Assembly: GCA_963665845.2 (NCBI GenBank)
Contig: OY762492.1
Coordinates: forward strand, 3,872,001-3,936,000
DNA length: 64,000 bases
From: Candidatus Poribacteria bacterium
GTDB taxonomy: Bacteria; Poribacteria; WGA-4E; GCA-2687025
Direction: 5' to 3'
This document shows positions 17,801 to 40,755 of the stretch, in pieces (within the stretch, counting starts at the first letter, position 1; every line of letters begins with the position of its first letter). The notes beneath the pieces were generated by a model, which was given only the letters and a program-made list of their open reading frames with translations, did not search any database and was not told the DNA's origin. Position numbers and translations under genes: made by a program.

Positions 17801-18441
17801 GTCTGGACGCCGAGACGATACGGGATCAGGCGCTGGCGTTGAGCGGTCTTCTCCATGAACAGCTGGGCGGTCCGAGCGTCAAACCGCCGCAGCCTGCAGG
17901 TCTCTGGAAGGCGGTCGGGTATGTCGGCTCCAACACGGATACGTTTGTCGCCGACAAGGATCCAAGCCAGATCTACAGGCGAAGCCTGTACACGTTCTGG
18001 AAACGCACCGCGCCGCCGCCGCAGATGAACCTGTTCGACGCGCCGTCGCGGGAGGAGTGCGTCGTCCGGCGGGAGCGCACCAACACGCCGATGCAGGCGC
18101 TCGCGTTGATGAACGACGCGCAGTATTTCACCGCGGCGAAGGCGTTTGCGGCGCGTATGATGAACGGAAACGAGGCGAACAGCGACGCCGAACGTCTGCG
18201 GCGCGGGTTCTTGACGGCTGCAGCCCGTCCGCCGTCTGAACAGGAGGCGGCGATCCTGCTGGAGACGCTGGAGGCGCAGCGGGTCGAGTTTCAAGCGGAC
18301 ATCGAATCTGCCGCCAAGATTGTCGGACCCATCCCGGAAGGCGAGGCGCAAATGTCAGACGAAGAGCAAGTTGAGCTTGCCGCGTGGACGATGCTCGCCA
18401 ACCTGATCATGAACCTGGACGAGATTTTAAACAAAGGATAA
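14866..18441 (+). CDS. Planctomycete-type cytochrome c / DUF1549 / DUF1553 (PSCyt1-PSCyt2-PSD1) protein
   Basis: Signal peptide, CFVCHG heme motif, HWAFIPP, YGEHMARYWLDAARYADT, CAQCHDHKYDP, PPTHPELLDWLA, RRSLY and TNTPMQALALMN. Confidence 0.93.
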   Translation: MSCVDHLFWKRRLGTALAAAAILSTAVMGWAQESANEAPDFNNVIRPILSENCFVCHGPDETQRKANLRLDLKADVFSDARGYSIVTPGKPDESPLYTRIAEENEHYRMPPIASGKKLEPEQIEAIRRWIEAGAEWKEHWAFIPPTRPEPPADLGDARLYNAIDAFIQKRLQKEGLSMSPEADRRVLARRVSLDLTGLPPSIEEVETFLADENADAYDRYVSRLMAKPAYGEHMARYWLDAARYADTHGLHLDNYREMWPYRDWVINAFNANMPFDQFTIEQLAGDLLPEPTLQQQIATGFNRCNVTTSEGGSINDEVYVRYAVDRAGAASTVWMGLTVGCAQCHDHKYDPISQKEFYQLFAYFNNVAEPAMDGNRKDTPPIVKVPTADQDARLAQLTEQIQTFAARIKDEAVPEVDAAQAEWEARQARWTPLRPHAFTSQGKAALKLLDDHSLLASGENPDKEVYEVAAEMPAGSFHAIRLEAIPDPSLPKKTSGRSDNGNSVLTGFEAEIATAEKPDEWKRIAFSEAWADYEQAREFAVVNAVDGKPETGWGLSGRQSRNVHAVFLADKPFSVSAGRIRFRLKYESPHAKHQHGRFRLSVTDAPFLEPVGSYAVFEDWHLIGPFEAENASAALRRAFALENENVNLGKNYKVNGKDYKWQKKAEWEHELTAAASEKPAVSYFYRNIRSDASQRAVIQLETDGHFKVFLNREELYESPFGSVSTASVHRFQLPLRPGNNQLVVKHLHTNADAVVKIEAATEEPIVPAEIVDAIAVASAERDEAAAQKIQRHYREFITKDEQVRGWFAQSADLQKQKTDLENGFATTLVMRELEKPRGAYVLERGAYDKRGEEVQPNTPAVLPPLPDGSPPNRMGFAQWLMDPGHPLTARVTVNRMWQQVFGTGIARTAEDFGSQGEPPTHPELLDWLAIEFIESGWDVQHMMRLIVSSAAYRQSSQATPELLAADPENRLYARGPRFRLDAETIRDQALALSGLLHEQLGGPSVKPPQPAGLWKAVGYVGSNTDTFVADKDPSQIYRRSLYTFWKRTAPPPQMNLFDAPSREECVVRRERTNTPMQALALMNDAQYFTAAKAFAARMMNGNEANSDAERLRRGFLTAAARPPSEQEAAILLETLEAQRVEFQADIESAAKIVGPIPEGEAQMSDEEQVELAAWTMLANLIMNLDEILNKG

Positions 18442-18460
18442 GAGAATGAACGCGATCAAA
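18418..18460 (+). repeat. Left copy of degenerate 43-bp direct repeat bounding the paralog array
   Basis: gacgagattttaaacaaaggataagagaatgaacgcgatcaaa versus 40713-40755 gatgaggttctaaacaaaggacaagcgcatggatccgatcaaa; 34/43 identical, ungapped (hand count). Confidence 0.75.
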
Positions 18461-37975: not shown

Positions 37976-40714
37976 ATGAACTTGATCAAAACGCTCCGCC
38001 AATGGACGACGCGTCCGATTCAAACCGCAAAGGGTATTCGCATGATGTTCGCACAGAAAAAGACCGCCTCTCTGCTTGGCATGTTGGCGCTGTTCGTCTG
38101 CCTCAACTCCGTTCTTCCGATGGAAGCCGCCGCGCAACTTCAAGAGCTTCGCGCGAATTACTTCTACACCCACGAGACGATCGACGTTCCGGATGTCAAT
38201 TTTTTAGCGTTGACGGCGAGCAGCGATTTTGAGGATTACGCCGGGTACACGCGGAACGCCGACGGCAAAGAGGTCGCTTTCACGCTCATGGACGGCGTCT
38301 TCAAAACCTACGATTTCCCCGGCTCGCAGAAAACCCATTTCTACGCGCTGGGGAATGATGGTACCGCCGCCGGCCACTACGAGGACAGCGAAGGGCAGTT
38401 TCACGGGATCATTCTCGAAAATGGGGAGTTTCGGGAATACAATTTTCCGGGTTCCGTCGAAACGGAGATCTACGGCATCAGCGACGCGACAGGAGCCTTG
38501 ACCGGCAATTTCACAGACGCTGACGGCATTCGCCGCGGCTTCACAGGGGACGAGATCATTGAGTTCCCTGGCGCTGTGGAAACGTTTGCCGATTTTATCA
38601 ACTCAAGCGGCGGCATGGTTGGGAGCTACATTGACGCTGACGGGCTGTATCACTCTTATCAGCGGACCCCAGGTGGGATTTTTATCAATCTCCGATCTCC
38701 AGGGCCGCTGGAATACATGTTTGTGCAGGGCATCAACGACGCATGGACTGTTATTGTGCGAGCCAAAGCGTTCGGCCGCGTTCCGCAAACCTTTGTCGGC
38801 ACATTTCAAGACGGACTGATAAGATTTGAATTTCCGGGCGCCGTTTTCACGGAGGGCTGGAACATCAATCAGGACGGGTCTATCGTCGGGCATTACGACA
38901 CCGCCGACGGCCGCCGACACGGGTTCATCTCAAGACCCATACCAGGCACCCCCGCCGAACCCGTAGAGTACCCCGCCGTCCCCGGCTATACTTTTGAGAG
39001 CATTGATGTGCCGGGCGTGGATTACTTAGCGGTGACAGCAAGTTCCGATTTTGAGGATTACGCAGGAAACACGTTGAGCTCCGACGGTCAAAAAATGGTC
39101 GGCTTTACGCTCATGGACGGCGTTTTCAAAACGTACGATTTTCCTGGATCAAAGAACACGTACTTCTATGCGCTCGGCAATGATGGAAGAGCAGCCGGAC
39201 ATTACGAGGATAGCGGCGGGCAGTTCCACGGGATCATTCTCGAAAATGGCGAGCTGCGGCAATTCAATTATCCCGGCGCCGTTCAAACAGAGATTTACGG
39301 CATCAGCGACTCAACAGGCGACCTGACAGGCAATTTCATTGACGCCGACGGCGTTCGCAAGGGATTCACAGGCGGGCGATTCCCGATCGTTGAGTTCCCC
39401 AAGGCGGTGGAAACATATGCCGAGTTCATGAACGGGCAAGGCAGTGTGGTCGGCAGCTATGTGGACGCTATGGGGCTGCGCCATGCCTATCTGCGCAACC
39501 AGTTTCGCCTCTTTGTATCTTTCGTGCATCCAGAAGCGGCAAAACTGGAGGTCTTTTCTTTGAGCGGTCTCAACGATGCGCGGGTTGCCGTTATCCGATC
39601 GAAACTGAAGGATGATGTCTCGCGCACTTATGTCGGCACATTCATACACGGACTGAACGAATTGCGCGTCCCCGGCAGCGTCGGCACAGAGGGCTGGAAT
39701 ATCAATCAGGACGGCTCTGTCGTCGGACACTATGATTCACCCGATGGACGCCGACACGGGTTCATCGCCCGACCCGCCGCCAAGGAAGTGAGCGATCGTT
39801 ACGACAATGCTTACACCGTCGCGTTGATGAAGGGTCTCAACATGATCTCGGTTCCGCTGAAGCCGCCGGCGCCGATGAACGCAAAGGCGCTCGCGGGGTT
39901 GACAGGCTCCACAACCGTGATCAAACTGGACGAGGCAAAGCAGCGTTTCGTCGGATGGACGCCTGGCGCTCCTAACGACGGCTTCGACATCGAAGGCGGA
40001 AAAGGGTATATCGTCAATGTGCCGACAGCGCGCCATTTTGCCTTCGCCGGCGCGGCATGGACCGATCCTGTCGATACGGCGCAGGGCGCGCCTCCTCTCT
40101 TCACCGAAAATATCCAGAGCGCATGGGCGTTCGTTGTGAGCGGACATCTGGAAGGCAAGCGCGCCTTGGAAGGCTATAAGGTACTCGTCCGCAACCTCAG
40201 AACAAACGAAACGATTGCGGCTCCAGTACAGGACGGTTACTTCGCCGCCGCGACGGCCGACCTGTCCCGCCGAAGCGTTGTCGAAGCTGGGGACGCCATG
40301 GATCTGCAGGTCGTCGGTCCGGACGGGAATATCGAATCGCAAACCTTCCGCTTCGACGTGACTTCAGAGCATCTCGCCAACGCCGTTCTGCCCGTTACGC
40401 TGTACGGCATCGGCATGCCGTCGCAGAGTCGGCTTCTGCAGAATTATCCGAACCCGTTCAACCCTGAAACCTGGATTCCGTACCAGCTGGCGGAAGACAG
40501 CGACGTCTCGATTGAGATATACGACGCTTCTGGACGACTGATTCGCTCCCTGTCGCTCGGCCATCAACCCGCGGGCTTTTACAACAGCCGCGGCAGAGCC
40601 GCCTATTGGGACGGGCGCAACGCGGTCGGGGAGCAGGTTGCCAGCGGCGTCTACTTTTACCATCTGAAAACGCCCACATTCCGCCAAACGCGGCGGCTTC
40701 TGATTCTGAAATGA
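37976..40714 (+). CDS. Array gene A7: 2 modules plus constant C-terminal region
   Basis: ORF 37958-40714 (918 aa). Confidence 0.88.
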   Translation: MNLIKTLRQWTTRPIQTAKGIRMMFAQKKTASLLGMLALFVCLNSVLPMEAAAQLQELRANYFYTHETIDVPDVNFLALTASSDFEDYAGYTRNADGKEVAFTLMDGVFKTYDFPGSQKTHFYALGNDGTAAGHYEDSEGQFHGIILENGEFREYNFPGSVETEIYGISDATGALTGNFTDADGIRRGFTGDEIIEFPGAVETFADFINSSGGMVGSYIDADGLYHSYQRTPGGIFINLRSPGPLEYMFVQGINDAWTVIVRAKAFGRVPQTFVGTFQDGLIRFEFPGAVFTEGWNINQDGSIVGHYDTADGRRHGFISRPIPGTPAEPVEYPAVPGYTFESIDVPGVDYLAVTASSDFEDYAGNTLSSDGQKMVGFTLMDGVFKTYDFPGSKNTYFYALGNDGRAAGHYEDSGGQFHGIILENGELRQFNYPGAVQTEIYGISDSTGDLTGNFIDADGVRKGFTGGRFPIVEFPKAVETYAEFMNGQGSVVGSYVDAMGLRHAYLRNQFRLFVSFVHPEAAKLEVFSLSGLNDARVAVIRSKLKDDVSRTYVGTFIHGLNELRVPGSVGTEGWNINQDGSVVGHYDSPDGRRHGFIARPAAKEVSDRYDNAYTVALMKGLNMISVPLKPPAPMNAKALAGLTGSTTVIKLDEAKQRFVGWTPGAPNDGFDIEGGKGYIVNVPTARHFAFAGAAWTDPVDTAQGAPPLFTENIQSAWAFVVSGHLEGKRALEGYKVLVRNLRTNETIAAPVQDGYFAAATADLSRRSVVEAGDAMDLQVVGPDGNIESQTFRFDVTSEHLANAVLPVTLYGIGMPSQSRLLQNYPNPFNPETWIPYQLAEDSDVSIEIYDASGRLIRSLSLGHQPAGFYNSRGRAAYWDGRNAVGEQVASGVYFYHLKTPTFRQTRRLLILK

Positions 40715-40755
40715 TGAGGTTCTAAACAAAGGACAAGCGCATGGATCCGATCAAA
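40713..40755 (+). repeat. Right copy of degenerate 43-bp direct repeat bounding the paralog array
   Basis: Matches 18418-18460; reads DEVLNKGQ versus DEILNKG* and contains the DUF1501 start codon. Confidence 0.75.

Follow-up and report, generated by a model that had tools for sequence, protein, structure and literature searches.

A 64,000-nucleotide (nt) window of a Candidatus Poribacteria genome (contig OY762492.1, positions 3,872,001 to 3,936,000 of the forward strand) contains an array of seven paralogous genes, A1–A7, which encode proteins of 613–1701 amino acids (aa) and lie between two genes that normally adjoin each other. The Poribacteria are a group of sponge symbionts. The left neighbour is an intact PSCyt1-DUF1549-DUF1553 gene (14866..18441, plus strand; PF07635, PF07583 and PF07587), and the right neighbour is an intact DUF1501 gene (40741..42207, plus strand; PF07394), which is 97% identical to its counterpart in the sister species. 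Besides this genome (G000, an assembly that is 90% complete), the genus is represented by one other, that of the sister species (G001, ~89.5% identical). The array is bracketed by two decayed copies of the host junction. They most likely stem from an old insertion with long target duplication that needed no recombinase, after which the array probably expanded by unequal crossover and acquired further propeller modules.

Duplicated junction at the array borders

The left junction copy (18397..18487, plus strand; outer limits set from G001) consists of the live DUF1553 tail, a 4-nt gap and a dead DUF1501 head that is read as the leader of A1. The right copy (40713..40795, plus strand) consists of a dead DUF1553 tail, a 4-nt gap and the live DUF1501 head. 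Their cores (18418-18460 and 40713-40755) align without gaps at 34/43 nt, with DEILNKG and the stop codon, 4 nt and the ATG of A1 on the left, and DEVLNKGQ, 4 nt and the ATG of DUF1501 on the right. The last codons of the DUF1553 gene contain the ribosome site of the gene that follows (Shine-Dalgarno pairing of -5.6 kcal/mol with the organism's own 16S tail). An earlier note, made by a model from the letters alone, had described this 43-bp degenerate repeat and a separation of 22.3 kb between the two neighbours; the distance is 22,299 nt, the Pfam identities hold, and the length of the repeat had been understated. When the whole 3.98-Mb assembly was scanned on both strands with either 43-mer, as the note had suggested, the partner was recovered at 34 and nothing else exceeded 27/43. 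The repeat is thus unique in the genome, and a generic ribosome-site motif was rejected as its source.

In G001, two A genes occupy the same junction in an insert of 4.8 kb, and the repeat is better kept: 74/104 nt match without gaps over positions -49 to +55 relative to the ATG, whereas the highest unrelated match in the 2.0 Mb of G001 that were fetched is 53. Its dead DUF1553 tail begins directly at the stop codon of an A gene and still ends in K-G-stop, and the right copy in G000 has lost 35 nt of this tail; ~55 nt separate the end of the dead DUF1501 head of G001 from the start that belongs to the A gene itself. The duplication is therefore longer than 43 bp, the 43-mer being its worn core. 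In a database protein from a third lineage, codons 16-19 still read F-x-G-Q as in the DUF1501 start, so that the original duplication may have spanned ~120 bp.

Contigs from public runs, which may represent the source sample, span both outer junctions with zero mismatches (16500-18495 and 40676-41974) and cover these junctions, not the inner order of the array. Since the two ends of the array do not fit within one 20-kb stretch, reads could not reveal an empty site. The unit-unit joints listed from reads have sides of 20-44 nt and match other organisms or repeats. RNA runs contained 0.06-0.10 of the words, which has no bearing on expression.

Host origin and ancestral gene order

The dead DUF1553 tail matches the real tails of this genus at 36/45 positions, compared with 24-33 for 15 other genomes, and the dead DUF1501 head matches the live genes of this genus at 35/54, compared with 25-31. 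Because the dead halves are closest to the live genes of their own genus, host sequence was copied rather than that of a donor, and a donor-derived repeat was rejected.

The two neighbours are adjacent in all four genomes from the family's other genera that have a close ortholog (gaps of 51 nt in G003, 205 in G005, 15 in G006 and 15 in G007), as well as in G024 (35 nt) and G033 (~100 nt). Among metagenome loci, they lie within 150 nt of each other in 54 of the 66 that were informative (80 fetched, 14 too short). Judged from these gene orders, the ancestral state is DUF1553 adjoining DUF1501. The propeller cargo described below was not found in 6/6 other genomes of the family (61-95% complete), and the genus-type C-terminal parts form one clade in a quick tree (Shimodaira-Hasegawa-like approximate likelihood ratio test, SH-aLRT, 100). 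That a gene entered here and duplicated the junction of the host, as put forward in the earlier note, is supported by adjacency in relatives, by the longer repeat of G001 and by the host-like dead halves.

In ten genomes of another genus (L008-L018), variable other genes are found at the DUF1553-DUF1501 junction (LRR in 3/4 scanned). Most of these genomes also have two copies of DUF1501 itself, separated by variable genes. These inserts lack a duplicated junction (best local scores 17-23 in 10/10, versus 51 and 88), which marks them as an independent event, and on this basis the junction was rejected as a class-wide cassette hotspot.

Internal junctions

The first internal junction (21167..21248, plus strand) serves as a model for all six: its 25-nt spacer is nearer to the right copy, followed by the ATG at 21192 and a leader that is nearer to the left copy. 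The common core noticed earlier is present at 6/6 internal junctions. Over the 13 nt before the ATG, a short test, the right copy gives 8-10 matches versus 5-7 for the left one at 7/7 junctions (six here, one in G001). After the ATG, the left copy matches at 28-31/36 positions versus 21-23 for the right one, and in A5 and A6 at 20/24 versus 13-16. By their sequence, the internal junctions are chimeras of right and left copy, as unequal crossover between the copies would produce, and they support the proposed amplification through the junction repeat. Unit number differs between the sister species (7 versus 2), as does unit order, G001 having an A6-like gene followed by an A1-like gene.

A second in-frame ATG precedes each internal-junction ATG by 18 nt (21174, 23896, 28283, 30996, 36109 and 37958). 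It lies 7 nt after the previous stop codon and has no ribosome-site pairing; at the internal junction of G001, the corresponding position is not ATG.

Array units and their starts

All units lie on the plus strand. A1 (18446..21166; 906 aa, own start 18500) comprises the leader, a signal-peptide-like stretch, two propellers, a stalk and a tail of the type IX secretion system (T9SS) type. It is followed by A2 (21174..23888; two propellers, junction ATG 21192, own start 21249), A3 (23896..28275; four propellers, junction ATG 23914, own start 23971), A4 (28283..30988; two propellers, junction ATG 28301, own start 28358), A5 (30996..36101; five propellers, junction ATG 31014), A6 (36109..37950; one propeller, junction ATG 36127) and A7 (37958..40714; two propellers, junction ATG 37976, own start 38042). 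A5 and A6 have both lost their native ribosome site and start codon to a deletion of 60 nt.

In 9/9 units, the ATG that derives from DUF1501 is in frame with no intervening stop codon; it is separated from the native start by 54, 57, 57, 57, 66, 75 and 111 nt. Five net changes in leader length were identified (-3, -9 as -8 and -1, -9, -36 and -60 nt), all of them multiples of three; if the events were independent and unbiased, the chance of the frame being kept through all five would be ~(1/3)^5 = 0.004. A1–A4 and A7 also retain the cargo's own start, 54-66 nt downstream of the junction ATG. Since this start and its ribosome site are deleted in A5 and A6, the junction ATG is the sole start with a ribosome site there, and it shows the best ribosome-site pairing of three candidates in both (-5.5 kcal/mol in A5 and -3.5 kcal/mol in A6). 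It is thus likely that the dead DUF1501 start has been kept as the inserted genes' own start, and translation from it can be inferred most firmly for A1, A5 and A6. The claim that the array captured the operon's translation start stands as far as the frame and the anatomy of A5 and A6 are concerned, and has to be relaxed for the five of seven units that keep their own start as well. Capture of a Tat (twin-arginine translocation) signal from DUF1501 was considered and rejected, the twin arginine not being kept in the leaders.

Predicted products

The A proteins share an N-terminal hydrophobic, signal-peptide-like stretch (as read from the sequence), one to five domains of 270 aa (18 in the array), a stalk of 200 aa and a TIGR04183/FlgD-Ig tail. 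The tail scored 32-34 bits against a cut-off of 23 in 3/3 units scanned. The 270-aa domain was modelled as all-beta (predicted local distance difference test, pLDDT, 91); its top matches are the Pizza6 and PknD beta-propellers, at a template modelling (TM) score of ~0.6, and it also matches the HAF-repeat. Propellers of the Pizza6/PknD type are six-bladed. For stalk and tail (pLDDT 76), Foldseek returned only generic beta-sandwiches at TM ~0.2; unnamed and DUF3466 clusters in the ESM Atlas at 0.93 are a lead only. The products are likely binding proteins that would be exported, tethered to the cell surface and expressed as part of the operon of the host.

The A family is large (1,956 matches), and the source names of the homologues are Candidatus Poribacteria. 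Arrays of the family are also found in three further families of the class, at loci unrelated to this one, where they use their own signal peptide. None of the 21 loci in other families shows duplication of the neighbours, as scores of 52 and 75 came from intergenic repeats, and an A-family element that always duplicates its target was rejected on this evidence.

Poribacterial secreted repeat proteins that end in a TIGR04183 (T9SS type A) domain have been described by Kamke et al. 2014 (PMC3909097), who did not find the structural genes of the T9SS in their genomes, according to the available text. The A proteins resemble them as secreted repeat proteins with the same tail. They differ in that the available part of PMC3909097 names WD40 and other repeats, not the HAF-like propeller of the A proteins, and contains no mention of DUF1501.

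About 50 proteins of G000 carry a T9SS-type tail. Two further tandem arrays of such genes were noted, one of six genes (G000:C1 950154-963938), whose unit content differs from that of the sister species, and one of nine genes (1881487-1902546).

Mosaic composition

Over the last 295 aa, the A proteins share 86-97% identity with one another, compared with no more than 73% to 196 outside proteins. The propellers show 63-78% identity to their best array mate, and the two propellers of A1 and the third to fifth propellers of A5 reach 79-89% identity to outside proteins. In a tree of 116 domains, the genus label has to change 11 times, and eight of these changes are forced by well-supported branches. 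The 18 propellers belong to several subfamilies whose nearest relatives are found in other Poribacteria and not among the array mates, so one amplified founder, as the earlier note had supposed, cannot explain the array. Even where the units are most alike, they differ by 3-14%. In sequence terms, leader and C-terminal cassette are of one origin and the propellers are not. As silent sites do not date any imports, the mosaic may reflect either repeated import or conversion within an array founded by several genes.

Younger insertions elsewhere in the genome

When direct repeats that are unique and non-paralogous were sought under strict criteria, nine were found at a spacing of 0.25-10 kb and none in each of five control distance bands. 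Ten candidates from a looser repeat list were compared with G001, which has a clean empty site for three and a partial one for another. In the first case, a 170-bp, 95% identical repeat comprising a gene end, a ribosome site and a gene start flanks 2.7 kb with two unknown opposite-strand genes (G000:C1:2862042-2865072), and the empty site is present as a single copy (G001:C13:198599-198768). The other two clean cases are a 38-bp repeat around a PD40 gene and a 69-bp repeat around a TPR gene; the partial one is a 185-bp repeat, for which the empty site of G001 has only ~40 nt of left flank. The copies of the 170-, 69- and 185-bp repeats are 94-95% identical to each other, compared with 85-91% to the sister's copy. 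Insertion with long duplication recurs and is a minority route in this genome. A repeat scan of 2.0 Mb of G001 against G000 gave 32 'empty' matches, and the five that were inspected were all tandem paralogs.

The 170-bp case lies two genes from comEC. An 80-bp, 98% identical repeat (promoter-like sequence, ribosome site and ATG; G000:C1:2207618-2210118), one of four candidates with rearranged flanks, resembles a classic restriction-modification (RM) case, its upstream copy starting an inserted pair with a weak Eco57I methylase match. Further unique repeats of 38-185 bp were found at G000:C1 360738, 810890, 977732, 1238649, 1972511 (three repeat copies), 2538799, 123035 and 3452184, with inserts of 0.5-5 kb (PD40, TPR, radical SAM, AAA_14/DUF4143 and unknown).

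Proposed origin of the array

Under the explanation considered probable, a foreign, promoterless A-family gene with a ribosome site would have entered the junction and duplicated at least 104 bp of host sequence, of which the footprint is visible, probably through break repair or template switching with short homology; as both neighbours stayed whole, the event survived. RecA-type unequal crossover between the junction copies may then have produced the first internal junction, as the chimeric junctions suggest, with whole genes serving as homology later on. The dead DUF1501 start, coupled to the last codons of the upstream gene and in frame, would have become a translated leader, which appears to have replaced the native start in A5 and A6. 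Gene conversion may finally have kept one leader and one C-terminal cassette, consistent with the mosaic, and propellers from several subfamilies may have been exchanged into the genes and stacked there, one to five in each.

Several observations weigh against this explanation. Both genomes of the genus are filled, and no empty site with a 4-nt gap was found, a pattern scan of metagenome contigs giving 0 matches. As to the empty-site check set out in the earlier note, the six relatives in which the genes are adjacent belong to other genera, and their spacer lengths differ from 4 nt. A protein scan recovered distant relatives only (58-70%). The propellers are polyphyletic, and the silent-site signal of recent import is weak (excess over composition of 0.08-0.23 for best matches versus medians of 0.06-0.17). 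Ribosome-site pairing of the junction ATG is weak in A4 (-1.2 kcal/mol) and A7 (-1.4 kcal/mol), and the native starts pair better in A2–A4 and A7 (-5.3 to -5.8). Among the ten younger candidates, four were uninformative because of rearranged flanks and two (L128 and L136) are not a simple filled/empty pair; 11/53 collinear insertions overlap by at least 25 nt, mostly tandem paralogs (2.0 of G001's 3.6 Mb). As to enzymes, no Ku was found in the 90% complete assembly, no IS1634 transposase scored over the cut-off (one weak partial match below it in G000, none in G001), and the recombinase search gave two tyrosine recombinases only, both common to G001.

The alternative that retains most plausibility, though it is clearly the less probable one, is a multi-gene donor array inserted once with target duplication, in which the crossover junction and the C-terminal cassette were spread by conversion without later import. 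It would account for the relatives of several propellers outside the genus at 79-89% identity, for the mixed-subfamily arrays of donors and for silent sites that show no recent import, and it agrees with C-terminal parts that cluster by species, a sign of conversion at work. Donor spacers, however, are mostly 100-600 nt long and none survives, all 7/7 internal junctions in the two species being of the duplicated type, and A5 combines modules with separate nearest relatives outside the genus.

An unlikely route to the same end product consists of two steps, namely a spontaneous tandem duplication across the junction, whose joint an A gene later entered or replaced, or else uptake of a circle bearing host DNA via competence and a single crossover. 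The genome is rich in tandem duplications and has ComEC, and the available text of PMC3457768 mentions that such patterns could also arise from tandem duplication combined with recombination. The limits of dead tail and head at the A gene in G001, however, leave no trace of a longer duplicate, and the younger cases show short, precise repeats around unrelated cargo.

A dedicated site-specific or transposase system that uses the junction as its site, either integron-like or of the IS1634 type acting in trans, is very improbable. The head-to-tail units have a common junction, which holds other genes in another genus, and IS1634-type elements make long, variable duplications. Against this, the repeat is coding sequence of the neighbours without inverted ends and occurs nowhere else in the genome, the other-genus inserts lack a duplicated junction, and Pfam, IS1634 and recombinase searches found no such enzyme. 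The absence of an integrase from the window reported earlier was confirmed in that integrase and transposase families gave zero matches in the 34 window proteins scanned by Pfam (smaller open reading frames left out). An assembly artefact or chance similarity has a negligible probability: near-identical gene arrays are hard to assemble and no listed record spans this one, but the same pair of junction copies is present in an independent genome at ~89.5% identity, each outer junction is spanned by a contig, and units differ by 3-14%.

Insertion with long target duplication thus remains the preferred explanation. A bolder version, in which a single recombinase-free insertion made its own expression and landing cassette (coupled ribosome site and leader), collected propeller modules from other Poribacteria families and exemplifies a still active, general route of gene gain with mostly non-nuclease cargo and without Ku or IS1634, not one peculiar to restriction enzymes, is regarded as rather doubtful.

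Comparison with known systems

Insertion with long target duplication was reportedly described by Nobusato et al. in 2000. Gene accordions arise by tandem amplification through unequal crossover between flanking direct repeats, and IS1549/IS1634-type elements make long, variable target duplications. The array resembles an accordion in its chimeric internal junctions, in the unit number and order that differ between sisters and in the homogenisation of the 3' cassette by conversion; it differs in that the insertion itself made the flanking repeats and the payload domains are of several origins. With IS1549/IS1634-type elements it shares a target duplication of ~100 bp, but the insert contains neither a transposase nor inverted ends, and no IS1634 transposase scored over the cut-off in insert or genome. 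Unlike in an integron, no dedicated recombinase is linked to the array, the junction consists of the neighbours' own codons, and all units are paralogs instead of unrelated cassettes.

The closest published class, to judge from the available text, comprises the insertions described by Furuta, Abe and Kobayashi 2010 (PMC2853133), which have duplications >30 bp and lack a mobility gene; they occur mostly in competent species, with repeats that often lie over a start or stop site, once in an operon-like cluster, and with amplification through the repeats as a possibility. Typical lengths of ~100 bp are given in PMC2993543 and PMC3457768, with the term widened to other DNA ('and other DNAs', PMC3457768). 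The array agrees with this class, as far as it is described there, in its >30-bp repeat, probably copied from a single target, unique in the genome (34/43 here, 74/104 in G001) and lying over stop and start, in its intact neighbours, its operon-like site, its probable amplification through the repeats and the competence gene of its host. No transposase, integrase or phage gene lies in or beside the insert, and single-copy empty sites in the related genome are seen for the younger 170-, 38- and 69-bp cases. The size limit of that search was <20 kb; the insert measures 22.3 kb here after expansion and 4.8 kb in G001. The search also demanded restriction and modification genes, which counts against a simple assignment: the cargo consists of promoterless genes for secreted proteins, 7/7 with propellers and T9SS-type tail, with no nuclease. 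Unlike in the published cases as available, the dead start is kept in frame, the native start is replaced in two units, and the insert grew into a 22-kb mosaic. The locus works like the long-target-duplication class and is not one of its RM cases. No literature on this exact locus was found, subscription journals lying outside the coverage.

The class is known, and its published explanation leans on the cargo's own nuclease. Most of the proteins encoded by the array and the younger inserts are surface or unknown ones, an indication of a repair or uptake process of the host, for whose testing the younger cases provide dated filled/empty pairs. The locus itself records the later history of such an insertion, from amplification through the scar and conversion of a dead start into a leader to growth of a variable surface-protein array, its particular twist being that a neighbour's leftover start was likely kept as the start of the cargo.

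Other features of the window

Promoter and terminator scans gave results at chance level. A hairpin repeat is present in four copies in the window (52, 12488, 58243 and 62549), none within the array, and has 806 matches in the genome. Further tandem paralog pairs lie at 13396-14749, at 50437-51540 with 49031-50398, and at 53382-56149; the M28 peptidase pair of the window corresponds to a single gene in the sister species.

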